Of a stretch of DNA of 40,493 nucleotides, positions 4,496 to 40,493 are shown piece after piece. The stretch comes from Proteromonas lacertae (Eukaryota). The position numbers and the translations under genes were made by a program. The notes under the pieces are model-generated. The model was given only the letters and a program-made list of their open reading frames with translations. It was not told where the DNA came from and did no database searches. The number at the start of each line of letters is the position of its first letter. Position 1 is the stretch's first letter. The DNA is taken from assembly GCA_002245135.1 (NCBI GenBank), contig NGBS01000343.1:1-40493 (forward strand), written 5' to 3'.

Positions 4496-7400
4496 GAGCT
4501 GTTGATTCTCCACGTAGTTTGTTAGTATCATTTGAACCTCCATCTGTTTATAGTGGATTGCCAATATTAGGTTATAAATTGAAATACGATACAACTCCTC
4601 TTTATACAAGTGATAATACTAATACAGTCGACTATAATGATGTTAATTTCTTGTACTATGATCAAACAATAGAAATAAGTGTAAATCAGGATATGAGTAA
4701 TTTATTATATGATGCTATTGATATTAATAACAATAATGATGAAATTACATTGTGTTTATTAAAGGAACAAACATATCAATTAGTGTATGATGAATATATC
4801 TCAGATCCAATATCATTAGGAAGTGAAATTAGAGAAATGAGAAGTGTTATTGAATCAATACCAGTAATAAAAGCAGTTTCAATAACTAGAATACCATATT
4901 AGATTAGTATTGGAGAAGTTGAATTTGAAGAAAGAAGTATAAGAAGCACTAGTAGTAGCAATAATGGTGAAATCGTGTTTAATATAAGAACTCCAATTGA
5001 TATTTATATAAATGGTAGAAAGTATTGCTTATTAGGTAAGTATTATGAGAATATTACAGATTGCTATAATCAAGGATATCCAACAGAAGGAAAACAGAAT
5101 GTTCAAGTAGTACAATCTTATACATACAATATACACTTGGAGAATGTAGCAAAATATAGCACATTTGAAATACGACATAATAGTGAACCTAAATGTTCAA
5201 TTCATGTAACAAGTGAAAAATGTAATGGATGTATAATTATTAGTAATGTAATTACTGGATATGATCATTATTTAAGTCTTTCTGCATATAATGAGTTAGG
5301 AGAAAGTGAATATGTTTCAGTTAATGAACCAATCATACCATGTGAAGTATCAGGTGCTCCAGTTGATGTTAACTTTGTTATAGTAAACAGTACATCATTA
5401 GAATTGAGATGGAAAGAACCAATTTATACAGGTGGAAAACCAATATTATATTATGTAGTAGAAATATCATCAGTATCTGATTTTAAAGTGATTGAAGAAC
5501 AACATACAGTTTATCCATTACAAGGATATAGATATATATTCAGTGATTTAGCTCCAAGTACAAGTTATTATGGAAGAGTATTAGCAGCAAATGAAGTAGA
5601 ATTTGATAATAATGAACATTGGGGTTATACATTAGATTTAGTCAAAACACAAGATGTTGTACCAGAAGTAGTAAATGGAGCTTCAATCTCATTCTTAAAT
5701 CCAAACACGATAAGATTATTAATACAAGAACCATTATCAAATGGTGGAAAATCAGTAGAATCTTATGTTATACAATATGGATTATCAATTGATAATTTGA
5801 ATAACAGTTATGAATATGATGTAAGAAGTGATGATGTAGAAAGAGTTCCAAATATTGAAACACCAAGTGTAGATGAATATATTATAGATATAAGTAGTTT
5901 AGAGGAAGGAAAGACATATTATTTCAAAGTAGCAGCAAAGAATGAAATAGGTGAAAGTGAATATATAACTACAACTCCTAGTTATTTAAAACTACCAAAG
6001 ATATTAGATTATCAATATGATATTACAGTAAAATCAAAATCAGTATCAAATAGTGATATTGAAAGTTTTATAACAATATACAATCCAAATAAAAATAATG
6101 AAATTGATCATTTGAAGTTAATAATGTATGAAAGAGATCAACCATCATTTACAATTGATGAATTATACTTTGAGAATAAGAGCAGATTGGCTTTATCAGA
6201 GAGTTATACATTAACATATTATCTGAATGAAGTATATAATGTAACATTTAAATATGATACAAAACCATTTGAAATAAGAAAGATGCTATTGGAGAATATG
6301 CCAGAATTAGAAAATGTTGAAGTTGTAAAGAAATTCACATTAAATTCAATAACATTAACAATAACATATAGAACTCATTTATGTATGAGATTATTGACAG
6401 TAATACCACCAACAGATGATTCTTATATAATTAACTACAGAAGAATACAGAATGGTATTGATTCAAATGGTCAAAATGAAAGACAAGTTTTGTATGTGAA
6501 TAAATATATGAATAGTAATACATTTAGACCATACTTATTAAGAGATAATAATGAAAAGATTTACAGTTCATATATACCAATAAATAAAGATTGTAATAAA
6601 ATGATTAAAGATATTGAATGGAGTTATAACTTATTACCAAATATTGGAAGAGTGAAAGTTGTTAAAACAACACAAATGAATGATAGTTGCAAATATTTAA
6701 TAGATTTTATATCATCTTTTGATGATGTTGAAAAAGTGTATATTGAATATCATATAATAGATAATGAAGATGTTGATGGATTTACTTGTGATGGAAGATA
6801 TGATGATAATGGAGAAGAATACAAGAAAGAATGTATTGAATCATTACCAGGTACATTACCACCAGGTTATAGAGAATTTGAAATTCCTTCAACAAATGTT
6901 AATGGTTTTTATGAAATATTTAATATTATGCCAAGTCAAGTGAAGTATAATATTCATATTGTTGAGTATTATAAAGATGTTTATCCACCATCCAAATTAT
7001 CAATACCTCCAGGAATTGGTTATTATTCAACAAAGAATCCATTATCACCAGTGAATGTTACATTAACACCATCAAATAAAGAAAATGCAATAGAATTATC
7101 ATATGAAGAATCAGGTGTGAATGGAGGTTATACAGTTCAATCATATTCAATACAAATTAGTAAAGATCCCGACTTTAAGACAATTGAAACAGATTATGAT
7201 ATAAGTATTGATGATAGAATAATAGATTCAAATACAGTGATAAGATGTAGTAATTATCCACAATACTCTATTTGGTCATTACAACTGCAATCCGATAATA
7301 ATACAGATACATTTATATTAGATATAAAGACAAGCCAGTTTGAAGTAACAACAAAGCCATTATTGTTCTCAAAAGTAGTTGGAAATATAAAAGATGAAAA

Positions 7401-9300
7401 ATTAGATAATATATACGATGAAAAGGGTAATGGATCATTAGAATCTGCATTAGAATCATTAAGTTTCATTAATAATGTTTCTGTTACTCAATATTCTATC
7501 TTAGAAGGAAATATATTCTATATTACTTTCTTAGATTTATCATTAGATATTGAATCAATCAATGTAGTAGCAAGTGGTGAAAAGACAACTGTAACAAGTG
7601 TAAAAGAGCTTACTAAAAAGATCATACCACCAAGTAGATGTTTTGGTTCAAAAATAGAAATAGTAAACTTGAAATCATTAGATTATTATTATGTGAGAGT
7701 TAGAAGTGATACAACAATAGGTCATAGTGAATATGAAAGATGTAAAGAACCATTTAAACCTACAATATATCCACAGACAGTAAATAGTTTTACAGTTACA
7801 CCTTTATCAGCAAGTGAAATCTTAGTTGCATTTATTCCTGATTTATCAGCTGATTATTATATTATTGAATGTGATAGATCTGTTGAATTTAACTCTAATC
7901 CAAAAGGAACAGTTATTGATAATAGAATATTGTATAGTGAAATAGTAAAGAGAGTAGATATTAATAGTAATTCAAGATTATTGCAAGACTCATCATTATC
8001 AATAGAGATTAGTGGTTTAATAGAATGTGAAACATATTATGTTCGATTAACAAGTGTGAATAATATCGGTGGTTGGAGTGTACCATCAACTTCAAAAGAT
8101 ATTTCAGTATATGGATTACCAAGTAAACCTGAATCAATAGAAGTTGGAATTACTAGTTCAAATTCACTTACAATATCCATACCATTACCATTGAGAAATG
8201 AAAGAATTGATGAATATGTGATAGAAATATCAACAGATGAAGAATTTACATCACCAATGAGATATTCTTATAAAATAGCTATCACATCATCAATAACAAT
8301 TACAAAACTGAAAGAAAGTGAAGAATATTATATTAGAGCATGTGCAAAGAATGATTTAGGTGAAAGTGAATATTATGTTAGTGATAATGGTTATAGAACA
8401 AGATTAGTTCCACCAGGTAAACCATTAATATCTGAAATATCTTTATCAAGAAATACATTAAGAATGTCAATAAAACCACCAGTTATACCTTATCATGGAA
8501 TATGGTGTAGTGGTAAGAGTAATGCTGAAAATTGTCCAATAGAATCTAGTTTTACGAATGGAATAGCTGATGGTGGTAGTGTTATATTATCATATATAGT
8601 TGAATATTCAATATCTCCTGATTTTATTAATCCAAATATTACTAGATTTATACCTGTAGATAAAAGTACGATGAAAGTAACAGGTATATTTGATTTACCA
8701 TATGATGGAATATGGTATATTCGTGTGTATTGTGAGAATTTATATGGAAGTTACAAATCATGTAATAGAATGTGTGATGCAAAGAATGAATGTAATGGTA
8801 AAGAATTAGTTGTTACTGTTTCTAATACAAATGATCATTTACTACCACCATCAACTCCTGATGTTGAAGATGAACCAACTGAAGAACCAACAACTCCTTT
8901 ACCTCCTTATCCAACTACAATTCCTCCAACAACAGAAATTCCTACTACTGAACCAACAGAAACAGTTGAAACAGAAAGAACAGAAGAAATTGATCATACA
9001 GAAATAGCAACAAATGAAGAAGGAATCACAACAGAAGAAGAATCAATAACAAAAGAGCAGATAATTACAGATGAAGAGAATGATCATACTACTGAAAAGG
9101 AAGATACTAAAACAACACCTACAGCAACTACAACTACAACAAAAGAAGAAATATTAACAGATGAAGAAGATGATGTATTAACAGAAAAAGAGAAATTGAC
9201 TGATGAAGATGAAGAGAATGATTATACATCATCAGATGATGATAAAACTGAAACAAATAAAAAGAAGAAATTAGGAAAAGATGAAGAATTTTTATTCTAA
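4496..9300 (+). CDS. Large fibronectin type III repeat surface/secreted-type protein with a Pro/Thr/Glu-rich tail; 5'-truncated copy with an in-frame TAG at 4900-4902
   Basis: Repeated FN3 signatures: SLELRWKEPIYTGGKPILYYVVE, LAPSTSYYGRVLAAN, LEEGKTYYFKVAAKNEIGES, LKESEEYYIRACAKNDLGES. ORFs 4441-4902 and 4975-9300 share a frame. It begins mid-domain (VDSPRSLLVSFEPP) with no signal peptide. Confidence 0.85.
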
Positions 9301-9377: not shown

Positions 9378-12300
9378 TTAGAAATCAGGTTGTATTAATT
9401 GACTCTCATTATGAACAATCATTTTACTCATTCTTCTTCCATCAGTTTCATCCAATGATTTTATTGAAATTGTACTACCTTCTTCTACAACAGCATCTTC
9501 AATTATATATGATTCTCTTGGAGATACTGATCTCTTCTTTATAAACGATGTAGAACCTGAACTTAACAAACTACTTAAAAATACTCCTGTTATATCAATT
9601 ACACTTCTAAATGGATCACGAATTTGATGTAAAGCTAAAACTATTATACTCTCTACAAACTCAGGATATAACATTGATAAAATAATTTCACCTTTCATTG
9701 GTAGTGTATGTTGAACTTCTAACCATATATGATTATGATCTTCTAGTTTATAACTATCATTGATTAAATGATTATCATTTCCCAATTTTTCCCAACTCTC
9801 CTTTTCTAATACTCTTATATCAATTTCTTTTTTATATGTTGAGTATTGATTCCATAAAAGTAATAGAGAATCGTGATATTTATATTGTACTTCTTTACAA
9901 TAATATTTGGGATGATGTTTATCTTGTAATGATAGAATCTGTTTTGATGTAAAAGGAATTATTGATTCTTTCATTTCTTGGGCTATTCATATAATACAAA
10001 ATATATAATAATAATAATAATAATATACAAAATAAAGTTCCAACAGATATGTTTGGTTCAATCATTTCTAATGTCTTTAAAAATATCAACAATAATTTGG
10101 TTGGTTCAATTGTATCACTATAAACATATTAATATTTATTTATTATTATATATACAATTCATGTGATTTAGTTTCTCTACAATCTTTCTTATTAATTCCA
10201 ACGTTATATAATAACAATTCAAATAGTGCAGTTTCAGATATTTTACTTATTAATCTCAAATGTTTAATAATAAACCAATATTCATTAATACATAATGAAT
10301 TATCTCTTAAAAATGAAGTAAATAGATTTAAAACTGTAAAGCTTCTCTCACATAATATTGACTTTGGTATATCCAATCCATACATTGATGCATCAAATTC
10401 ATTTAATATATCAGAAGAAAACGGATATTTTTTTGAAACTTCTATTGATTTTTTCCAACATTCTCCAAATAGACATTCACTTATTTTATTTGAATCATTC
10501 ACATTATTCTGTATTAAATCCATCATTGAAGATATATAGGGGATAGTTTGATTCAAAGCTTGAGTAGTTTCATTATGTTCTTTAGAAAGATTTTCATCTG
10601 AATATGTTGTTATTTTACTATTTATAATAATAATATTGTAATAATAACATACTCTACTTTCTGTAATTGTTTGAAATGTGACTGTACTGTTCGATATGGA
10701 GCTAATGAAGAAGGTAAATATGGTTTTGATAAAAACAATGATGATAATAAAGTATACTATTACATTATATATATATATTTACATACATTAAATGCAATAT
10801 TACTATTATTCACATCTTCCCAAACACTATCAGTATCTATTTAATAATATAATAATAATTACAATAATAAAAATAAAAATATACTCTTTTCATGAACTAA
10901 AGTTTTATTTAATAAATACTTATAACCATCAGAAGTATCTACTGATTCTGTGTGCATTAATATTGAAGCTAATAACTTTAAATAATCTCTTTCATCAGCT
11001 AATTCACTTAAATCATTCAATTCTCCTCCAGTTAAATACTTATACCAATTGCATAATAATTCATTTATATTATAAGAATCAGAATTTGGCTATTCATATA
11101 TATATATATAAATATATATACATAATTAGATGGCTTAATTGGATTTATATTACCATAATGTCTTGATAATATTGGTGTAACTGTTATTAATGCATGACGA
11201 GTATGTCTCAATGAATATAAAAAACTACCCGTTACACCATAGATTGATTTATCATCACAATAAAACTGATTTGGTCTAATATCAATCTTACTAGATACTC
11301 TTTCATATTCATAATCAATTAATTGTTTTTGTTTTAAATAATCTTCTAAGTCCTCTTTCAATTCAATCAATTTACTTTTTGTTAATTCGATATTATTAAT
11401 AGTGTCATCTTTATATTTAACTAATGCTTCATAATTGTATTGACTTGCTTTTGATTTCTTTGTGATTATAATCTCCTTCCATGCTTTAAATACTCTTAAA
11501 ATAATCTGTTTTGGATCACGAAATTGCCTTGAAAATAATATTTGTAAATGATTCTTCAGTTGTTTATTATGTTGAATTATTCCTTTCCATTCGTTGAATG
11601 CTTGTCTCATTATCTTCTTATGAGCTTGTCGAACTATTCAAAATGAAAATAAAATTGTAAATACCTTGTATATTATCACCTCCACCTTCATCTTTCAATG
11701 TATTTAAATGTTTTAAAAATAAATTTCTGCATCTATCTCTATCAGCAGCTATTAAATGATTTTCACTTTCACTTTCTCTATATCTAATCACATATGGATA
11801 ACCATCAAAATATCTTAATGGTTCATTCGTACTAGTTAAATTACCGTCATAATTAACATAGCAACTTCTACCTATTTCACATAACAGTGTGTTTAGTATA
11901 TCACTATAAGGATCCATTCTTGGCAAGAGTAATTCAAAGATAACGAATGATAGACTGAGCAAATATTTATTTGGCTCATATAAATCTTTACATAAATGAC
12001 GAGATTCCTATACTCATGATTATTATTATATGTAATTATATATATATTTATATACTTTGAAGAAAAAAGCATATTGTAAAACTAATGATTCAAAGGTCTC
12101 TTTTGGAGCTGGACAGAGTAAAGGATAGTATTTTATTAATTGATCTTGTAGTTCTAACTCTAATGCTTTTAATGAAAGTTCATCATAGATTGAACCACAA
12201 TCTTCTTTGGTTAATTTTACTATTCCTCTTATTATACTGTAAGCTATTTATATTAATAATATTATTTAATTAAAAATACGTTTAATTTGTTGTGGTATAT

Positions 12301-20344: not shown

Positions 20345-20966
20345 ATGTCGGAACAACATGCTGATGTGTGGGTTGATGGACCAAAACCTGTTGATAAAGT
20401 AGAATATTTGCATTGCTATGTTTTGAATAGGAAATTGATCCAAGAAAGAACTATGTCTCTTCATTCAAAAAAGAGGGAGTTGGAAAGATAATAGCTAAGT
20501 ATATACCTGTGTGTTATTCTTTATAGAACTAAAGTTAAAGCAACTTGGAATGTAATAATAGAAGGTGTAGAACATGTGGTTGTTGCTTATCACAGCCAAG
20601 TAACAGGCAAAAAATCTGTCTTATTAGACTCAGAAGTATATTATGAAGATCAGGATATGTCATACTTTGGCATTGACTACGAATTTACTAATAAAGTAGA
20701 AGGAAGAAAAATAGGTGTTACTGCTGAATCTACAGGAGTAGGATGGAAATATGAATTGTATATTGATGGATATTCAATGGAAAAGCTAAACCAAAAGAGG
20801 TATTTAATATATTCTATTCTGTTATAGAGCAAACTTGACTGTACAAGCTCCTACTACTACAGCCGTGCAAGCTGATGCTGATAGACGTGGAACAGTGGCA
20901 GATGTGGAGAGTGAAAGTGAAGAAGAAGATGATGATGAAGATGAAGAAGAAGAAGAAGCTGTGTGA
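20345..20966 (+). CDS. FAIM (Fas apoptotic inhibitory molecule)-domain protein, paralog 1
   Basis: WNVIIEGVEHVVVAYHSQVTGKKSVLLD...GWKYELYIDGYSM matches the FAIM pattern H-x-x-x-SGKRxxxxDG...YxLxIdG. Short introns and an acidic tail. Confidence 0.75.
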
Positions 20967-21209
20967 TTATTTTATTTTTTGTATTATATGGTTGTTTGAA
21001 TTATGTCTAAATAATATATATAACTGTATTATAGAAAATGTGATTTGTTTGAACAAAAATATATTCGTTGTGAGGCTCAAGTTTTTGGTTTGAGTCAGTT
21101 TTTATCAAAAATTTAGAATTCTTTTTTATTCTATAAACAACTGATATAACTAAATGTACAAATTATTCCTTTTAATTATTTGAGTTATTATTTTATAATT
21201 TAATAGATA

Positions 21210-21841
21210 ATGGCAGATAAGGATACGAAAAAAGAAGATGTGTGGAATGGAAACAAGGATATAGCAGATGCAGTCAATATAGCAGTATAGTGTTTATCTA
21301 TTATTTAACAGGATATTGATCCGTTACGTAACTACCAAGTGTCATATCGTGAAGAAAAAGTGGGACGAATTGTAAAAAGGTATTAATAATTAATATAAAT
21401 ATTTATTTATCTAGTTCAAAGATGAAAATTACTTTTGAACTTGTAATTGAAGGTAAAGAACATACAATAGCTGTATATCACAGTAAAGTTACTGCTAAGA
21501 AAGTTATTTTACTTGATGGTGAAGTTATGTATGATACTCAAGATATGGTTGATATTGGTTTAGATTATGATTTCCCAGGTACTATTGAAGGACATAAAAT
21601 ATCAGTACAGATCATTGATCAATTTGGTTGGAAATATGAAATATTAATTGATAGAGTTTCTATGTCACAACTTGCTGAAAAGAGAATGAAATCAGCAACA
21701 CAAGCTACAGTAGCTACAACCACTGTACCACCAGCAGCAGCAGTAGCAACTACATCAAAAGCTGTAGAACCAGATGCTGAAGATGAAGATGATGATGAAA
21801 ATAGTTCTTCTTCTTCAGATGAAGAAGAAGTGACAAATTAA
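21210..21841 (+). CDS. FAIM-domain protein, paralog 2
   Basis: FELVIEGKEHTIAVYHSKVTAKKVILLDGE...GWKYEILIDRVSM aligns by eye with paralog 1. Confidence 0.75.
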
Positions 21842-29883: not shown

Positions 29884-31361
29884 TTATTTAAATTCAGATG
29901 TAATCCAAGAATAAAACAATTGCTTTTGACATTCATTCTTAAACCCACCTGGTTTGAATGGAGCTTTGATAATTTCACTGAATCCTTCAGATAATTCTGG
30001 TTTCTTATATCCTTTAAAGAATGTCCTTAAAGCAACCATCGGAACATGTCTATTTTCAACCCCATAAGGATCAACAACTCTAAATTGACTTAAATGGAAA
30101 GATATTTCCAGAGTTCTTTCCATATCAACACATCTAACAGGAATTTTGAATGATTTGGCTATATTAATCCATTCAGCTCTATTCTATACAACATAGATAG
30201 AATAATATAATATACTGCAATATCCTTATTAGTATTATCAATAATAACAGACTTACCACTAGAAAGTGCAGCTTTACATGCATTTATACATTTACTCTTT
30301 GTCTTTAAAGTATCTTGATTAATTCTTTCATAATTCTTAAATATATTAACAACTGTACTTTTACCAGCAGCAGGAGGTCCAACTAAAACAACAACTTCCT
30401 GTTTATCGCTTAATTTAATATCAGGAACAACGATTGATGGATCATCAAATGTAAGTGGATCTGTAATCTTATTATTCCACATTCCTGGATCTAAATCAAT
30501 CTTATTCTTACTCTCTTCAAAGAATGCATCTGGAGTAATAAAATTACATCCAATATTCTGTGCAAAGAGATAATCTCCTGGACTAAAATCCTTCTTTCTT
30601 TTTCCAACTATACAAATAAAAACATTATTATTATATAATATACATGCATCTCTACCAGCTGCATCACCACAGTAGAAACTCTTTTCAATATCAACAGGAA
30701 CATCAGAATGAATAAAATTACAGTAGAATTGAAACATTCCAACACAAGGTTTTCTATAAATACTATGCTTTGATACACATGCTAAAATAACTAATGGAAA
30801 TGGTAATAATTTTAAGAACTTCTCAAATCTCTTCTCCATTTGATCAACTGTTACTTTACCTGCTGGAACACCCCCTTGGTTAGAGATAATAGCTATTGAA
30901 TAACCTTTATCATTCAATTCTTTCATTTTATCTATAACATGTGGAAAACTGATTTTATCTGTATTATAATCAAATAAGGTTGAATCAAAATCAAAGCCAT
31001 AGAATACTGATGATTTTAAATTGCATCCAGGAGGATAGTAATAGTATAAATCATCAATTTCATGCCAATTAGTGTCTGGAACAAGAGGTCCACTTAGTTT
31101 TATATTTGGAATTACATTCTCAGATACTCTTGGCTTTGCTGAACCAACTATCCAATTCTTTTTACATTCATTAGTTGAATCTGTTGTAGATTGTGGTTCA
31201 CTTGCAGCTGTTTCAACTTTAGAAGCTTTTTCTGGTGGATTTGAAGATTTATCATCTTTTTCTTCTTCAGAAAGCTTTCTCTTCTGTGGAATGCTTTCCT
31301 CTTTCTCTTCTTTCTTATCAACAACCTTCTTTGAACTTTTTTTACCTCTTTTACCTGCCAT
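29884..31361 (-). CDS. PNKP: Bifunctional polynucleotide 3'-phosphatase/5'-kinase
   Basis: HAD motifs GFDFDSTL, SNQGG, YRKPCVGM and SFYCGDAAGR. Kinase P-loop GPPAAGKST, plus INQDTL and IIDNTN. Two short introns. Confidence 0.95.
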
Positions 31362-31780
31362 TAATTATTGGTTTGATGTAAAAAAGAGTTTTGATACAAA
31401 AATGTGAAAAACACTATAAATTGTTTTTTAAGCTTTTCTCAATAACTGTTTAGAGTATTCAAGAATTAATTTGTCCAAATATGTACTGTGCATAGCACTA
31501 CACATTTATGCACTTAAAATCAAATAACCATTTCTAGTCGATATCCATTATTATAAGTAGAGCGTAATATAATATTATATCTATGAAGGGTGACTTATAC
31601 ATATAACATTTTAGATTTTTTTTCGAATTAAGAATTAAAAGGCAATGAAATATAAAAAATGCTATAGTATTGTTTAAGTGAATGAAACATTGTTGTTTGT
31701 TATCTTATTGACTTAAGCAAACATAATACTATTGCTTCATAGAGTTTTTTTCTCTTAACTCTTACTAATTAAGGAGATAA

Positions 31781-32067
31781 ATGACTATTTATTAATCTGT
31801 TTTCTTTAATTGTTTGCTCCATACCTATCAAATCAAATAGAAATGTAGAATATAATAACATAGATACAGTCGATAAATTTGTTGAAAATAATATAAACAA
31901 AGATATATATGTTAATGTGGATCAATATTGTGAAGACAGCTTAATTATAGCTTTCTTGAGGTACAATATAAAACTTTGTGAGAAATAAATACGAAATTAT
32001 ATCAAGTACAGTATTAAAGTATTATATAAATCAAAAATTTGAAGATGATATTTACATATATGATGAT
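31781..32067 (+). pseudogene. Decayed, signal-peptide-like host ORF apparently cut off by the viral element
   Basis: With frame corrections it reads (M)LFINLFSLIVCSIPIKSNRNVEYNNIDTVDKFVENN...YINQKFEDDIYIYDD. Composition then changes abruptly at 32068. Confidence 0.4.
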
Positions 32068-32141
32068 AGTTCTCTTGACTGAGTTTGGCAAAAGACGTCC
32101 TTTTACGTTTTGTCCTGACCTTTGTCTCATTTTTGCTACGC
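32068..32141. repeat. Candidate left terminus / start of a terminal inverted repeat
   Basis: It starts AGT..., as Polinton ends usually begin with AG. It is GC-richer than the flank and has an imperfect hairpin GGCAAAAGACGT-cctttt-ACGTTTTGTCC. The partner TIR is not in the window. Confidence 0.45.
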
Positions 32142-32835
32142 TTAAGCCTCATTTTCAGATAAGTAACCATCTACTAAGCGTTCTATAACTTGATTATAAC
32201 GTTCAACCTTACCATTCGTTTGAGGATGATAAGGCGAGCTTGTTATCTTTTTGGTATGATAATCTGCCATTAATTCATTCAATATACTGTTGACAAACTC
32301 AGGTCCGTTATCAGATTGAATAATTGATGGGGAGCCAAAAATTCGTATATAACTTTTAATATTTTCTGCTGTTTCTTTGGCACTTTTTGTCTTTTGACAA
32401 TAAATCATAATAAAACTACTATAATGATCAATAATAGATAAAAGTAATTTTTCATTTGAATGATATTTGCTCATATTTATTAAATCAATCAGTATCCTTT
32501 CTCTTGGTGCATGAGATATGATTGGTTGCATTGGATTACTACGACTAATCTTCTTAATTTTGTGACAAACAGCACATGCATTTAAATAGATTCTAATCAT
32601 GTCTCTTTTTATACCAAAATATTTTGCATCACAATTAATATATTGCATCATGAAACGCTCTCTTCTATGCCCATGAGATCTATGAATATCATCCAATATA
32701 TCAAAACTTTCTTCCAATTTCACTACCAACTTATCTTCGAAGTAGAGTTTATTATTCTCGACTTTATACTTTTTAAGTTTGTAATAATTAATGTTATTCA
32801 AATATTTGTCATACTTTTTCTGATCAAATGTCCAT
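32142..32835 (-). CDS. Retroviral-type (rve) DDE integrase with H2C2 zinc finger, Ginger/Polinton-like; C-terminus appears truncated
   Basis: IHRSHGH...CAVC zinc motif; catalytic ILIDL, QSDNGPEF and NGKVE with exact D-35-E spacing. The likely ATG at 32835 needs a 1-nt correction (MTFDQKKYDKYL). Confidence 0.93.
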
Positions 32836-32868
32836 GAGTTTGTGCCACTTAAGCATAATTTAATATAT

Positions 32869-33270
32869 GTATAACCGTAAGAATATCACTGTATATGGGT
32901 AAACCGTACCAGACTATTCTTAGGTGCCTTCTACAGGTAAGAATAAGCGATTTGAGTGTGAATTAGTTTTTGGTACGGGTTATACTGGAGCAAGTGGTGA
33001 ATTTAAAATTGTGTATATATTTTAGTGTGTGAATAAATTTATGGGTTAAAATTTATTTTTATATTTTTAATAGTTTTTAGCGTAGGATAGTAGAAATAAA
33101 GTGTATAAATAGATAGGTAGCTACCTGTTCTACCCCGGCAGGGTAGCTACTTTATAGAATAAGAAATGTATTTCTATGTAAGTAAGTAGCGTGTCCTGTG
33201 TAGCCTGACTAGGACTTAGTGATTAAATAGTGTGGTGGCCAAGCTACAGAATGCGTTCTTACTTTTTTTT
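32869..33270 (+). ncRNA. Candidate structured non-coding RNA or structured cis-element inside the viral element
   Basis: Nested stems: 32904-32911/32971-32978, 32915-32922/32938-32945, 33032-33040/33049-33057, 33091-33098/33169-33176, 33117-33125/33142-33150, 33180-33194/33251-33264 and 33199-33204/33243-33248. G-U pairs favour the + strand. Followed by T8-GG-T8. Confidence 0.55.
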
Positions 33271-33503
33271 GGTTTTTTTTCATTTATCAATTTATTTATG
33301 GATTTATATAGTGTAGTTAAAAACATTCAAAAGAATTTAAATAGTGTCAAAAATATATATTTAAAGAATTATCTACAGTATTCTATATTTTTTACTAAAT
33401 CGAAATTCTGACGAGAAACTGTTGTTATAAACAGAAAAAAGAAACAGTTTTGATTTTCCTGATATTTTAGAAAAAACCGTTTCTTATCAAAAAATATATA
33501 AAT

Positions 33504-33983
33504 ATGTGTGCTTCAGTAAACTTTGCTTTCTTTTGTTCATTTAGAAATAATGAAGATTATTTAGATAAGTGTATATGTGGAACATGTAAGTTTTACTTAT
33601 ATTTTAACCATAACATAAGTGCAGTTTTAGATAGCCCATTACCTAAGGAAGAGATAAAGTCTTATAATGAATTCTGTGCTATTTGCCATCAAAAGATGTG
33701 GACAAAGTATAGTGATAAGAGATATTACATGATGCTTTTCGATATTAAACCATCAGTAAAACCAAGAGGATTAAATAGACATTATTTTGCAGTGTTCGAT
33801 AAGTATATTGAGTGGTTAACACTACCTGAAGGAATGGGAAGTGTTCATTTGAAGAAGAATCCTATGTTGAAACATTATGTAAAGAAGAATTATATATTTG
33901 ATGATAGTGATGATGAGGAAGAAGAAGAAGTACAAGAAGAAGTTAAAGGAAATAATGATCAAACTACGATAAACATAGTCTAA
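33504..33983 (+). CDS. Viral Cys-rich, putative zinc-binding protein with an acidic tail, function unknown
   Basis: Intronless 159-aa ORF with CICGTC and CAIC and a DDSDDEEEEE tail. Confidence 0.7.
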   Translation: MCASVNFAFFCSFRNNEDYLDKCICGTCKFYLYFNHNISAVLDSPLPKEEIKSYNEFCAICHQKMWTKYSDKRYYMMLFDIKPSVKPRGLNRHYFAVFDKYIEWLTLPEGMGSVHLKKNPMLKHYVKKNYIFDDSDDEEEEEVQEEVKGNNDQTTINIV

Positions 33984-34114
33984 ATTTTAAAACGAATCTT
34001 TATTTTAAAATGATTTGGGACAGGGTTTAAAAATATGCGTAATTTAATAAAAATCACATAATATAATAAAAAAATAATAAAAATAATAATAAACATAATA
34101 AATTCATATTAAAA

Positions 34115-34996
34115 CTATAATAAAGATTGATCATTAGGGTAAACATGTCTTAAACCAAAATCTATAATCTTTGTATCAATTGTTTGAGGTAATATTGCTT
34201 GATACTGATCACCTTCACATCCATCACTTTCTAACCATAATAGAACTTTATTTTCATTAAAATGATATAAATAAAAATTACAAGATAATTTTTGAGGTGG
34301 GGTAACACTATTGTTATGAATCTCTATAGGGAATGGTACTGCATTAGATCCATCATTAGGGTATTGATTATATAAATGATCAAAAAATGAATAGAATTTA
34401 TCATCTGAACTATATTTAGGATATAAAAGAGAATCATTATCTAAACATAAACGAATTTTACGAAGTTGTCTATTACCACTAAATATTTGACATAATTTTA
34501 ATGTTTTAATTCTCATAAAATTTGGGAAGATTGTAACTGTAATAGGTATACGATCAATTATTTGTTCATTATACTTATTATTACCTAAATCTTCTTTTAA
34601 CGATACAGTCCATGTAGTATAATACTTACCTAATATAGTAGGAAATATTATATTCATAGTTTTGCAATGTTTATAGATAGAATACATAAACTTACCACTT
34701 TTGTTCTTCATAAAATCTTCATAATCATTTTGATAATAATATGTTCCAAGTGTCTCTTTACTAATATATTCATTATTTTCATTATTATATGATAATGTTG
34801 TGACTGCACTTAATGTACTAGTAATTTTATTATCACATCCACTTATTTTAATATTACATTTTTCAATTTCATCATTGATGGGTTTAACAATAGTATCAGG
34901 ATCAGTAGGTTGTATATTTATTTTGTCAGCTATATCTTTAGCAAGCTTATCTGTATCAATATTTATATCTGAAGTATTTCGTTCCCCAATAAACAT
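34115..34996 (-). CDS. Viral protein of unknown function (short coiled coil followed by a beta-rich C-terminus; possible fibre-like protein)
   Basis: Intronless ORF co-oriented just downstream of the ATPase. First true ATG is at 34996 (MFIGERN). Confidence 0.7.
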   Translation of the reverse strand: MFIGERNTSDINIDTDKLAKDIADKINIQPTDPDTIVKPINDEIEKCNIKISGCDNKITSTLSAVTTLSYNNENNEYISKETLGTYYYQNDYEDFMKNKSGKFMYSIYKHCKTMNIIFPTILGKYYTTWTVSLKEDLGNNKYNEQIIDRIPITVTIFPNFMRIKTLKLCQIFSGNRQLRKIRLCLDNDSLLYPKYSSDDKFYSFFDHLYNQYPNDGSNAVPFPIEIHNNSVTPPQKLSCNFYLYHFNENKVLLWLESDGCEGDQYQAILPQTIDTKIIDFGLRHVYPNDQSLL

Positions 34997-35040
34997 TTTT
35001 TGAATTAATAAACAATAAAATAACAAAATTAATAAAAACA

Positions 35041-35802
35041 TCAAGAAACTTCAGAATGATCTTCAATCAAAATATTAAAGTTAGCTCTAAACACTTTTTT
35101 AACATTATCAATATATAAGAAGTTATATTGTGGCTTAGTAACAGCTAAATATAACTCTTTAAATGTTTCATATTCAGGTATCCATATATTCAATGAGTTG
35201 TATAAGTCAAACAAATTTCTATTACTCAATCCATAAAATGTTAAACAATAATCTACTTGTGATCTTGCTGAAGGTACTATATCAGTAATATATTGACTAC
35301 TAATTATAATTTTTGATTTTAAATGTCTATTTTCTTTCATTAATACTGGTATGATATTAGCTGTTTTCAACTCTAAACTAAGATCATCAAATATTATAAT
35401 ATGTTCTGCATACTCAAAATTATCTTTGTTTGTATCATCAATTGATTTCATTAACTTCTCTACTAAATTATCTCCTGAATAAGGTTCAAATAATGAATCG
35501 TTTTCATCATAACTAATTTCATTATAATCTAATAACTCTTTAATTGAATCATATATCCTATCTTGTTTAATTGTGCCTACGAAAAAATGTACATGTTGTT
35601 TTTTCTTATATTTTGGATCTATAATATGTCTTAATATATTGTATATCAAAGTGGTTTTCCCACTGTTCTTACGAGCTACAATAAATATATTGCAGAAAGG
35701 CTCATTAAAGTAATCATATCCCAGAATTTTCTTAGGATCAAAAGACTCACCACCATCAACAGGTTCAATTTGTATATTATTTATTTTTTCAAATTTAAAC
35801 AT
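35041..35802 (-). CDS. A32/FtsK-HerA-family genome packaging ATPase
   Basis: Walker A IVARKNSGKTT, Walker B IIIFDD, arginine-finger ENRH and sensor IISSQY; 253 aa. Confidence 0.93.
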   Translation of the reverse strand: MFKFEKINNIQIEPVDGGESFDPKKILGYDYFNEPFCNIFIVARKNSGKTTLIYNILRHIIDPKYKKKQHVHFFVGTIKQDRIYDSIKELLDYNEISYDENDSLFEPYSGDNLVEKLMKSIDDTNKDNFEYAEHIIIFDDLSLELKTANIIPVLMKENRHLKSKIIISSQYITDIVPSARSQVDYCLTFYGLSNRNLFDLYNSLNIWIPEYETFKELYLAVTKPQYNFLYIDNVKKVFRANFNILIEDHSEVS

Positions 35803-35873
35803 AGTGTGTGTATATATATATTATGTAGTGAGAAATCAAAAAATAAAAATAGAAGTCAATAATAAAGTGTTAT

Positions 35874-37295
35874 TTATACTACTTTCTCAACACCTCTTGG
35901 TCCAATAACTAATTGTTTACCTGTAATAATATAGAATTTATGATGAATTGTATAAGTATTTTTTGCAGTATCAAAATCATGATTTGAGCAATCCAAAGTA
36001 ATTTTTAAATCACTTGCTAAGTCTTTACCAGCTCTTAATTTTAATTCAGTTAATCGATCAGTACTGAAATTTAATACATCAAAGAATCTATAAGGGAATG
36101 AATATGCTGAACATTTTTCATATAATGTATTTTGAATAATATTTCTCATATATTCCCAAGTTTGGTATTTTGCAGGATATAAATAATCAGGAGTATAGAC
36201 AAAATCATTAATTTGCCATCTAATTCTATCTTCTTCTTTATCAAAAGGAACTATAGTTCTTATATAAGCATCATTTATGTATGCTCTGTATAATATAAAC
36301 TTAACATAACTTCCAATGCTGCTATTAATACTGAAGTTATAGTTAAAAGTACTATTACCTGGAATAGGATCTTTAGTTATTTGAACTATGTTAAAATCAG
36401 TAAAGTCAATAGGATGATGAGTTGAATAATTGATGGTATTGGCATTGCAAGTTGGATCTTTGTTATAACAAACATAAAGATGAGGATTAACTATTTTCAT
36501 TCCTAAAAATGCTTGCCATTGGTTTATATATTTATCTCCATCATTATGATGAACCCAATTCATTATAGGTGCAAATGTGAATTGTATGTATATTACTTCA
36601 CCAAAATAAATATCATTCTTCAAAGCTAAAATAGTATTGTATATGTCTGCAAAATGAAATCTACACAGTATTTGACCATGTAATGTATCTGTCATACCAT
36701 TTTGCATTACATAATAATTTTGAACACCTCCACTTGGATTTAATGTATTAGCTGAATGACATAATAAATTTTCACCTATTTTTTGATTTGCAGTATTAAA
36801 TCCTAAACCATCAAATATTTTCTTGTAATAATCTGGTTCTTTTAAATCATAAGGAAATTGATTTGCAATTTCATGAGCTAAATCTCTATATTCATTATAA
36901 CTAGTATCCAAATCACATAGCAAAGTTCCTGTTTTGTTGTATACTTTTAATGTACCAAAATTCATAGTATTCTTCAATGTTAGTTTATCTAAATTATTTG
37001 CACTAGTATCTCTTTTAGGTACAAAAGGCATATCCCAATTACCTGAATCTGCAGCAGCATGAGCTCTAGTTTGACCTGTAGTATAATCTAATATGAATTC
37101 AAAATAGCTTTTTGATAAGTTAACACAATTATCACCAGATATTTCAAATGTAATAGCATCACTGTTTGAATTTAAAGATAAAACAGTCTCATTCCTGCTT
37201 TGGTTTGGAGTAACTAAAATATGGTTGTAAATTGGTATGTAAGCTGGCACAATGCTTTCATGCTTTTGTGAATTAGGTATAGCAGTGATTGACAT
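35874..37295 (-). CDS. Probable double jelly-roll major capsid protein
   Basis: 473-aa beta-rich ORF between the minor capsid gene and the ATPase. N-terminal ITFEISGDNCVNLSKSYFEF resembles the IxFxI...DLsxSYl pattern of PLV/Polinton MCPs. Confidence 0.82.
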   Translation of the reverse strand: MSITAIPNSQKHESIVPAYIPIYNHILVTPNQSRNETVLSLNSNSDAITFEISGDNCVNLSKSYFEFILDYTTGQTRAHAAADSGNWDMPFVPKRDTSANNLDKLTLKNTMNFGTLKVYNKTGTLLCDLDTSYNEYRDLAHEIANQFPYDLKEPDYYKKIFDGLGFNTANQKIGENLLCHSANTLNPSGGVQNYYVMQNGMTDTLHGQILCRFHFADIYNTILALKNDIYFGEVIYIQFTFAPIMNWVHHNDGDKYINQWQAFLGMKIVNPHLYVCYNKDPTCNANTINYSTHHPIDFTDFNIVQITKDPIPGNSTFNYNFSINSSIGSYVKFILYRAYINDAYIRTIVPFDKEEDRIRWQINDFVYTPDYLYPAKYQTWEYMRNIIQNTLYEKCSAYSFPYRFFDVLNFSTDRLTELKLRAGKDLASDLKITLDCSNHDFDTAKNTYTIHHKFYIITGKQLVIGPRGVEKVV

Positions 37296-37348
37296 AATTT
37301 ATGTTATTTTAAAAGATTAAAAAATACTTAAAAATAGCAAGAAATTTA

Positions 37349-38321
37349 TTAATACAAAATAATCTCAAAATAAATAGGTAAGTTTTTTAAATAAATTGCA
37401 TAACCATCTTGTTGTGTGACTGATATAGTCATTCGTTGATATTCGTGATATTGCATCTTCTTAGCTGTCCATTCAATTTGTGGATTAGTGAATGTGGTGT
37501 AGTTAGTATTAAGATCTTTCACAGGTATGTTAGCTAAAACCATTGAATTCTCACCACTATTAACCCAGTCACATCTAATTTGTATGAATGACACCCAAAT
37601 TAAAGACGGTTGATTAGGCAATATTTTGTCATATTCTATATCAATATTATTAAAAAATGCTTCAATTGGAGCTGCTGTATGATAAATATCTAACTTTTTG
37701 TTCATCTCATCTACACCATATAACTTATAAACTAAGTTAGGGAATTCAATGCTAAAATCTGTGAAATATAATCTACCAAAATGAGTTAAGTATTTGAATT
37801 TTAAGTGTAATCTATTTTCTGAACTTTCACTAAATTGAAGTATATCTGTTTGATCATCTATTTTACGAAACGGATAGTTTTGTGAAAGATCTTCATCTGG
37901 CAATGGTCCTGCTGCACCTGCCTATTTCTGCAAAACTTAACGATAGTAACTTATTACTAAAAAATTCTAATAATTCTTTACCAGTATAATTTCTTTGAGG
38001 TATTTTAGCATCAATAGTTTTATAATAAGGTCCAAGCTGATTCTCAGGTTTTTCCCATTCTGCTGGATTTGTTTTATCTGGATTTATGCATTCGTAGTAA
38101 GTGAAATTAAAGAGAATATGATCATTTACTTCATCTTGTACTGTATAGAAGTTATTTGGAATAACTGCAGTAATTAAACTCATATATTGATATTTTTCAG
38201 TAATAGTTGGAGTATTAATACATCTAACCCATTTATTAGATAATTTTTCATTATAGTCTGATGTTGTTAAGAACAATGTTCTTCTATTAGCTAATATGTT
38301 GTTACTATCTTTTGGTTGCAT
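37349..38321 (-). CDS. Probable minor capsid (penton, single jelly-roll) protein split by one frameshift near 37920
   Basis: SLITAVIPNNFYTV...IPQRNYTGKEL in the N-half and FIQIRCDWV...VLANIPV...ISVTQQDG...PIYFEIILY in the C-half. Removing one base fuses the two ORFs into ~323 aa. Confidence 0.8.
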
Positions 38322-38400
38322 TATGTTTTATAATTGTTGAGAAATATTAAAATATAATTTTATTTGAATTATTCTTTAATTTATATATTGTTATATATAT

Positions 38401-40493
38401 ATGCAACCGCAACCTCAAGTTAACAATTCAAATGATGATGAAGAAGATGGACCCACAGATGATGATGAATATGAAGATGAAGAAAATGAAGACAATGTAC
38501 CTATTGATATGAGGCAGAATAAGACATAGAAGAAGACATAGAAGGAATCAAGTCATACCATTTCAAAATATAAGTGAAGATGATTTAAATAATTATGTGG
38601 ATCAAGAAGTGAAAAGATTTAACAAAGCATTAATTATTCAATATAGACTTATTCCAATAGGTTGGCCAAATCATGAGTTTAATAGAATATATAATTTATA
38701 TGATGAACATATGAAAATGTTTAATTGGTGTAAAAATTTATTTGTAACAGGTCCTTTTGCACATGGTAAACCATTAGAAGCTTATAATCCAAAATTAACA
38801 GGAAATGAAAACTCTGCTAATGCAAGAGAATGTGGCATATTTAAAACTCGTATAGCAGATGGTATTGATAAATTGTGTATGGCATCTGATTTTATATTAC
38901 AAAGAAATCCATTTGTTGTTTTACACCCAAAAGAGAGAATAGGTGTTACACAACTAGAAAATAGAAGAATTAAAAAAACTCATTATGAAATTGATGAAAG
39001 ACATCCAGAACCAGAAAATGATTTTAACATAATGAATAATGAACATTATAATAGTGCAGCTGAAATAAGAGCAGAAAATGTTATGCAAAATAGACATGAT
39101 AATATGGTAAGAGGAGTATTAGTAAATGCAGACAATGGAAGTAATGATAATAACAATAATAACAACAATGGAAATAATAGCAATGATAATAATGTAAATA
39201 ATAACAACAATGCAAATTATGATATAATTAGCTTTTGTGATTCTCTGAAAGATAAGTTAAAGTTTTATATAGGTCGTTTAATGAGAACTAAATTTTGGTA
39301 TTTAACAAATCAAAAAGAAGAAACAGCTTATTCAATTGCGTTAATCATATACAACTGTGTAACTGATTTGTATATATTAGCTTTATATTACATACCAATA
39401 TTAAAAGATAAGTTAAGTGGAGATTATCAAAATGATAATGAATATACTTTACCATATCATCCTGATAGAAGAAATTTTATGGGATTACCAGATGGTGATA
39501 ATAGAACTGGATATAGATATAACTATTTAGCAACTATACAAAAAATATTATCAGAAGCTCATGTACCACAAGGACAAATCAATACAAATATATTTGCTAA
39601 TCCTATAACTTTTAGAATGAATAGAGCTTTAGATACACAACTTAACCGTCAAATTAAACATAGAAGATCAGTTCCAGCTTATGTTGGAATGAATGTTGCA
39701 GATCATAGAAATTGGAGATATGTTGCACCAGCATAATTATCCTCCTGCTCATCCATCAATTACTGCAGATTTGAATTGATAGAAATGTCAATGCATTTTA
39801 TAATGCATCACCTGCAAATAGTGATAGTGAAGATAATGATAATAATCCATCAAGTAGTGATACTGAAGAAGATTCAGACACTTATGATCTTGGTGATATG
39901 AGTAATCAAATACCACTCCTCCTTTACCACCAAGACCTATACCAGCAAGAACTATTCAACAACCACCTCCACCTCCTCCTGTATCAAATGTATCTAGATC
40001 TAATGTAATTAGTTTAAATAATCAATTTAATCCTCATCATCTTATACCATCTGATAGATTTTCATTTTTAGTATCAGATGATTTGCTTAATGCTATACCA
40101 AATCCAAATAGAGACTTTAATAAATCACATAGATTTTTAGCTACTAGAGAAAATGGAGCAAAAATAGGTGTAACTAAGATAATACAAGAGTTTTATACAC
40201 AATTATTAACAAATAATGGTAAAATCTATTCAATTGATGCATTTATACATAATCATAATCCACCTTGTACAATTGTAGATGAAAATTCAAATAAGAGTTA
40301 TATGTTCTTTACTGATTGGGTTAGAGAAGAAAACATCAATTTACCTTTATTACCTAGATCTACATATAATGCAACTGAAGTAAATGATATACCTCAAAAT
40401 TACAGTAGTATCAATATGATGTTTTATGGATATGATTACAATAGAAATATATATTCATATACTGGTTTATTAGAATATTGGTTAAAGAATCAT
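38401..40493 (+). CDS. Large viral protein of unknown function, interrupted by several frameshifts/stops and running off the window
   Basis: ATG 38401 (MQPQPQVNNSNDDEED), ORF 38597-39736, an acidic/Pro-rich linker, then a stop-free frame from ~39960 to the end (PPPPPVSNVSR...LEYWLKNH). It could instead be two genes. Confidence 0.6.

Follow-up and report, generated by a model that had tools for sequence, protein, structure and literature searches.

The window analyzed here comprises positions 1 to 40,493 of the forward strand of contig NGBS01000343.1 (40,493 nucleotides). Its right-hand part carries a compact block of virion-type genes, and eukaryotic genes occupy the left-hand part of the same contig. 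On the minus strand lie a likely minor capsid protein (penton) gene (37349–38321), a gene for a major capsid protein of 473 amino acids (aa) with a predicted double jelly-roll fold (35874–37295), a gene for an A32/FtsK-type genome-packaging ATPase of 253 aa (35041–35802), and, directly behind the latter, an open reading frame (ORF) of 308 aa (34115–35041). Further to the left, an rve (DDE) integrase frame is found at 32142–32885, also on the minus strand. We propose that the virion-gene block is most likely part of an integrated Polinton-like double-stranded DNA (dsDNA) virus, with a probability of about 0.82.

The Major Capsid Protein

The capsid gene is intact, and its product has no match in Pfam. 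An AlphaFold2 model built from 120 sequences consists mostly of beta strands and reaches a predicted local distance difference test score (pLDDT) of 85.4 and a predicted template modeling score (pTM) of 0.85. In a comparison with 48,161 solved chains, the best 16 of the 50 VIA matches listed were viral capsid or scaffold proteins, and the first non-capsid match had a Z score of 6.7. The best structural match is the capsid protein of Paramecium bursaria chlorella virus 1 (PBCV-1), with a Z score of 23.4 and a root-mean-square deviation of 4.1 over 350 aligned residues. Further Z scores are 22.1 for faustovirus, 20.1 for African swine fever virus (ASFV), 18.8 for Sputnik, and 17.9 for mavirus. 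A BFVD search with the capsid model concurs, at 7–15% identity. A model obtained from 8 sequences was poor (pLDDT 54.9), yet mavirus, Sputnik, and other double jelly-roll capsids were matched first. The ORF is therefore predicted to encode a double jelly-roll major capsid protein. The initial annotation, which had described an endogenous Polinton-like virus in a Blastocystis-like genome, had named the lack of this fold in the 473-aa ORF as the outcome that would speak against it; structure prediction gave the fold.

Sequencing-run assemblies supplied all seven close relatives of the capsid, which share 38–77% identity with it. With a profile, the search extended to 211 representatives, of which 12 scored E ≤ 1e-30. 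A quick tree with 53 rows places the window capsid in a 12-row long-branch clade with a Shimodaira–Hasegawa-like approximate likelihood ratio (SH-aLRT) support of 100, apart from 41 more distant capsids. Relatives with DNA context were also sought with a capsid pattern, and none was confirmed among 600 matches in IMG/VR and 505 in JGI; the wider capsid alignment contained no stretch conserved enough for a pattern search. Searches of IMG/VR with the ATPase alone, with the penton, and with the integrase returned no close relative with DNA context.

Packaging ATPase, Penton-like Gene, and Gene Order

The A32-type ATPase proposed in the initial annotation is borne out. The intact protein matches Pfam Pox_A32 at 23.0 bits, above the cut-off of 22.8, and Gly48-Lys49 of the Walker A motif and Asp139-Asp140 of the Walker B motif are invariant in 30 of 30 aligned sequences. 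Homologues numbered 107 among 445 candidates. The nearest relatives share 92%, 81%, and 68% identity, and searches with the ATPase alignment reached distant loci only (9, 6, and 75).

Next to the capsid gene, two overlapping frames (37893–38321 and 37349–37921) match the two halves of the same four single proteins, each 315–322 aa long. Because these four proteins cover both pieces, the frames represent one gene with a single frameshift near 37900–37920. Its product is likely a penton. A profile of this protein, run against the ORFs of 86 loci, picks capsid-adjacent ORFs (best E 1e-6), and its HH probability against eight aligned ORFs that neighbor the capsid in related loci is 94.8% (E 5e-8). 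The penton-like ORF noted initially thus stands as one gene beside the capsid, and its role is to be read as likely.

Coding sequence makes up 97% of positions 34115–40493, and the capsid, ATPase, and penton genes are colinear with their homologues. No introns are therefore needed in these three genes, in agreement with the intronless cluster first described, and the listed ORFs lie where they had been placed. The order penton–capsid–(small ORF)–ATPase on one strand is found in 7 of the 13 loci listed (L017, L020, L024, L031, L034, L036, and L039); the small ORF before the ATPase in these seven environmental Polinton-like loci is absent from the window. Homologous capsid, penton, and ATPase genes in the same order also characterize the environmental loci L017, L018, L020, L031, and L039 and the L001 group, and the window capsid profile matches the L017 capsid at E 5.6e-21 (local database). 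These environmental loci differ from the window in sequence, with about 25% identity in the capsid and at most 38% in near-full-length ATPases, and in having a small ORF between capsid and ATPase, with a C48 protease match in five.

Proposed Assignment to the Polinton-like Viruses

The double jelly-roll fold, together with the ATPase and the penton-like gene, fits the endogenous Polinton-like dsDNA virus of the initial annotation. Endogenous Polinton-like viruses are known in 462 protist genomes (Bellas et al. 2023, PMC10120064), and one more such locus is to be expected. In the same survey, Proteromonas lacertae contains a single capsid cluster with 285 copies or hits, clusters being defined by at least 25% identity over 30% of the length. 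The Proteromonas elements are termed Polinton-like viruses in a 2026 preprint (10.64898/2026.07.28.741278). Like the window capsid as modeled, the P. lacertae capsid has a double jelly-roll fold with PBCV-1 as its best structural match, and its listed lengths range from 304 to 509 aa, one of the 15 being 473 aa as in the window (PMC10120064). Two motifs of the cluster capsid, DNCINLSKSYLE and FNYSFTINSSIGPY, correspond by eye to DNCVNLSKSYFE and FNYNFSINSSIGSY in the window. P. lacertae is a low-GC opalinate, as the host of the window probably is too, although the latter may be Blastocystis. The printed representative of the P. lacertae capsid, compared by eye, clearly differs in sequence from the window capsid. 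Judged by the motifs compared by eye, the window capsid likely belongs to the family catalogued in P. lacertae. The virus is of a known kind, and the locus is probably a further representative of a catalogued group.

A second published virus for comparison is the Blastocystis midsize eukaryotic linear dsDNA (MELD) virus, which carries a DNA polymerase of type B (PolB), an integrase, and virion genes of divergent sequence (Starrett et al. 2021, PMC8502044). It resembles the present element in being a mid-size dsDNA virus with an integrase and with virion proteins that are unrecognizable by sequence. This likeness is one of description; the MELD virus is not described as integrated in the text of that source, and its PolB has no counterpart within the window. 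In the literature covered, with subscription papers, bioRxiv supplements, and figures lying outside that coverage, no integrated Polinton-like virus is described in Blastocystis.

Polinton-like viruses in the broad sense (Polisuviricotina) have a double jelly-roll major capsid protein, an A32/FtsK packaging ATPase, a single jelly-roll minor capsid protein, and genomes of 15–40 kb with terminal inverted repeats and a replicase. Several observations weigh against the proposed assignment. The window shows neither a terminal inverted repeat nor a target-site duplication nor a replicase. The window-family motifs that run along the whole length of the printed P. lacertae capsid were recognized by eye only. 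In Table S1 of the protist survey, the capsid count is empty for ten Blastocystis assemblies, the meaning of this column being taken from its agreement with Table S4 (PMC10120064). The one related locus with an integrase match, L018, has an integrase of a different type, an rve-chromodomain protein without a zinc finger, which shares 27% identity with the window integrase over 108 aa. On the host side, a host-like frame at 31785–31988 does not splice with the next piece into one frame. The remaining points concern the penton. The eight ORFs that gave the high HH probability had been selected in part because they match this very profile, and for seven lake-virus pentons, used as another set, the HH probability was 1.1%. 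The adenovirus penton model matches one of four penton relatives below threshold (E 0.0024), the match of the profile to a PDB penton is also below threshold (E 0.34), and the nearest named Atlas cluster, which carries the Sputnik V18-19 family, is flagged weak and lies below threshold.

If the assignment is correct, capsid trimers would, by analogy, build an icosahedral shell whose vertices would be closed by pentons, and the particle would be filled by the ATPase with a linear genome of some 15–30 kb. The replicase and the right terminal repeat would then sit beyond the end of the window. The family likely spread in the host by insertion driven by a DDE integrase, and it is probably present in multiple copies, which would explain both the stop of the contig inside the element and the frameshifts. 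The capsid clade, with at least 12 divergent members and named-source matches only in sequencing-run assemblies, is tied here to a probable gut protist and to a likely penton and an ATPase, which allows a screen of gut metagenomes for this clade. Should the host be Blastocystis, the family would extend to the commonest gut eukaryote.

Origin of the Integrase Block

The integrase frame matches Pfam rve at E 8.8e-13. The residues of an N-terminal H2C2 finger (His68/His73 and Cys104-x2-Cys107) and of a D-35-E core (Asp133, Asp192, and Glu228, the latter two separated by exactly 35 residues) are located as originally claimed. The frame is incomplete at both ends: it lacks an ATG before the finger, a stop follows 19 codons past the catalytic Glu, and the match to the core of human T-lymphotropic virus 2 ends at residue 121 of 164. 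As assembled, the integrase is likely inactive, judging from its sequence.

The initial annotation had counted this integrase as a Polinton hallmark, and this part of it does not hold. Polinton integrases lack the H2C2 finger, whereas Ginger2 transposases have it (Bao et al. 2010, PMC2836005), and the finger is present here. The element should not be filed under Polinton/Maverick (Polintoviricetes), because the integrase departs from the Polinton criterion and the 8.4 kb of the element in the window hold no protein-primed PolB, the rest lying outside; it would work like a Polinton-like virus. Polintons/Mavericks further have terminal repeats with a target-site duplication and a cysteine protease; at the one end covered here no repeat partner was found, and the two long right-hand frames gave no protease match.

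The combination of H2C2 finger and DDE core is shared with the Ginger2/Tdd transposons (PMC2836005). This raises the alternative that the block at about 32068–33260 is an independent Ginger2/Tdd-like transposon relic and that the virus, itself integrated all the same, begins near 33250, a reading to which we give slightly less than an even chance. Its composition points in the same direction. The observed/expected CpG ratio is 0.72 in 32068–33260 and 0.23 in 33261–40493 (binomial p 1.4e-4), and none of 284 equally sized host windows reaches the value of the block (maximum 0.65). The limits of the block were, however, set post hoc, and its flanks (31400–32067 and 33261–34114) likewise have elevated CpG. 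The chromodomain integrase of L018 likewise favors a separate origin, as does the frequent presence of retroelements beside such insertions (PMC10120064). Conversely, such viruses usually carry an integrase at a genome end (10.64898/2026.07.28.741278), and the published Blastocystis virus has an integrase as well (PMC8502044).

A Ginger2/Tdd element should have terminal repeats of 50–300 bp starting with TGTNR and a 4–5 bp duplication; in this case, the 3' part of the integrase is missing. No terminal repeat pair was found around the integrase, where 29 TGTNR sites occur in 31900–33600, none of them paired. The window integrase thus differs from the Ginger2/Tdd transposons in its truncated frame and in that neither terminal repeats nor a duplication were found, and the lack of a flanking repeat pair also argues against a separate relic. 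The odds are about even that the integrase is the virus's own and was cut by a deletion that also took the left terminal repeat. The frame may therefore be a viral gene that was swapped in and cut by a deletion, or else a Ginger2-like relic of separate origin.

If the zinc-finger integrase is viral, it would represent an integrase swap from Ginger-type transposons. A fuller version of this idea, which we regard as doubtful, is that a Polinton-like lineage specific to opalinates took up a zinc-finger transposase of the Ginger2/Tdd type in place of the usual chromodomain integrase and is now integrated in the genome of an AT-rich Blastocystis. Were this so, the locus would be a first mapped DNA provirus in Blastocystis, and Ginger transposons would be linked directly to the integration of viruses. 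No Ginger2-type integrase is described in a Polinton-like virus within the literature coverage stated above. The zinc-finger integrase and a possible host in Blastocystis deserve further attention.

A GC-rich hairpin lies at 33117–33150, between the integrase and a 159-aa ORF, with a folding energy of −8.4 kcal/mol for 33100–33160 (DNA parameters, no shuffle control). It may belong to a terminal repeat or represent an origin.

Integration, Host, and Age of the Insertion

The genes to the left of 31361 are eukaryotic by Pfam, as expected for an element adjoining host genes. They encode polynucleotide kinase 3'-phosphatase (PNKP), Urb2, two FAIM1 proteins, a thioredoxin/protein disulfide isomerase, a cation efflux protein, and a fibronectin type III (FN3) protein. 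The PNKP gene (29884–31361, minus strand; Pfam PNK3P, E 1.2e-34) is the last clear host gene before the element, and removal of one 32-nt GT-AG intron at 30215 opens a frame of 481 aa. The same intron test on the two FAIM1 genes gave no model, and short AT-rich GT-AG stretches of 30–38 nt are in weak excess (44 seen, 29 expected).

The GC content is 25.5% in the host part, 26.4% in 33261–40493, and 26% in the virion genes, so that composition does not mark the element. The CpG ratio of the virion genes (0.22 and 0.12) compares with 0.28 in the host, and this host-like depletion suggests a long association of the virus lineage with the host. Human Blastocystis genomes have 39–55% GC and 30-nt introns, tortoise isolates have 21.5–23.1% GC and longer, variable introns, and P. 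lacertae has 27.0% GC (PMC12129017). The GC content and the intron-like lengths of the window fit an AT-rich Blastocystis or a Proteromonas-like opalinate. The Blastocystis-like genome first suggested is plausible, but among named protists the capsid family was found in P. lacertae alone. The host is probably an AT-rich gut opalinate, in whose nuclear genome the provirus probably lies.

The motif TGTTTGTT, known downstream of Blastocystis genes, occurs 11 times in the window; 200 shuffles gave 3.9 ± 2.0 copies, with a maximum of 12. A position behind a stop codon is clear for one copy only. Being near the shuffle maximum and having one clear post-stop copy, it does not settle the host.

Integration of the virus is likely, as judged from its setting on the contig. 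A look-up of sequencing runs for 31000–40493 listed none, which counts neither for nor against it. The host–element boundary had been set at 32068, and the mark of this position is solely a local rise in GC, a 74-nt stretch at 42% GC behind the integrase stop (32068–32141). This proposed left boundary has no inverted or direct partner in the window beyond short AT-rich chance matches. A short host-like coding fragment with a hydrophobic start lies to the left of the proposed junction (31782–32081) and has no match in Pfam or NCBIfam.

Alternatively, the contig may be chimeric, an assembly error having joined host DNA to a free virus genome or to a copy that belongs to another locus. The position of the element at the window end, a join without terminal repeat or duplication, and the indel-prone assembly are compatible with this possibility. 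We nevertheless consider it unlikely, given that the virion genes are host-like in GC and CpG depletion, that endogenous members of the capsid family have been published from a related protist (PMC10120064), and that the host and viral sides have no common repeat able to mislead an assembler. A mavirus-type virophage provirus, which was suggested by the mavirus and Sputnik capsids that Foldseek placed at the top of the PDB matches of the first, poor capsid model and by the Sputnik V18-19 cluster nearest to the penton piece (0.93, flagged weak), is very improbable, as the good model scores PBCV-1, faustovirus, and ASFV above Sputnik and mavirus, the capsid has no Pfam match, no virophage family appeared among 30 distant homologues scanned, and a column count in Table S4 puts the P. 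lacertae cluster beyond the virophage block (PMC10120064).

The initial annotation had also taken the intact capsid and ATPase genes to indicate a recent insertion. Both are whole, as are the 308-aa and 159-aa ORFs, but the integrase, the penton gene, and the region 38401–40493 are broken as assembled, and the recent date does not follow. In elements of this sort, assembly artifacts often account for stops and frameshifts (PMC10120064). Positions 1–2119 and 9489–11614 form a host duplication that is 99.3% identical, the differences being mostly small indels; it is either a recent segmental duplicate or an assembly artifact. Over 2129 aligned columns, the two copies show 10 gap openings and 2 mismatches. 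Since the assembly is indel-prone, the duplicates differing mainly by gaps, neither intactness nor breakage can date the insertion.

Remaining ORFs and Other Features

The intact 308-aa ORF behind the ATPase gave no match at E < 0.05 in Pfam, PHROGs, NCBIfam, or PDB sequences; by its position, a fibre or spike is possible. The 159-aa ORF (33504–33983, plus strand) is intact and has two CxxC pairs and an acidic tail. It is putatively zinc-binding, with zinc-finger matches below threshold (E 0.07–0.2). The region 38401–40493, on the plus strand and divergent from the virion genes, contains overlapping coding frames (one starting at 38401, 38513–39736, 39775–40008, and one from 39906 to the end). 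These are likely one or two frameshifted genes, and the coding stretch runs off the window. The frames gave no match at E < 0.05 in Pfam, PHROGs, or NCBIfam, and the two long ones do not match the protease genes of related loci. An Rfam search gave no match at E ≤ 0.5.

Some features of the environmental loci were also recorded. In L018, a 1282-aa ORF (L018:10639-14484) lies beside the rve-chromodomain integrase and a Dam-like methylase; it has no sequence match in Pfam, NCBIfam, or PDB and is possibly an unrecognized replicase. LicD-family nucleotidyltransferase genes are found near the capsid genes at L001:4969-5574, L002:10819-11487, and L005:3503-4084. An assignment of the lake loci L001–L007 to the Gosseviruses, considered for their helicase and protease genes, was dropped, as the printed GKS1 capsid is unlike theirs by eye.

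On the host side, two FAIM1-domain genes lie in tandem at 20346–20967 and 21212–21841, and a copy of TGTTTGTT is found 10 nt past the stop of the second. The fibronectin type III repeats at 4903–9300 form an unbroken frame of 1465 aa, which indicates an uneven distribution of indel errors along the window.

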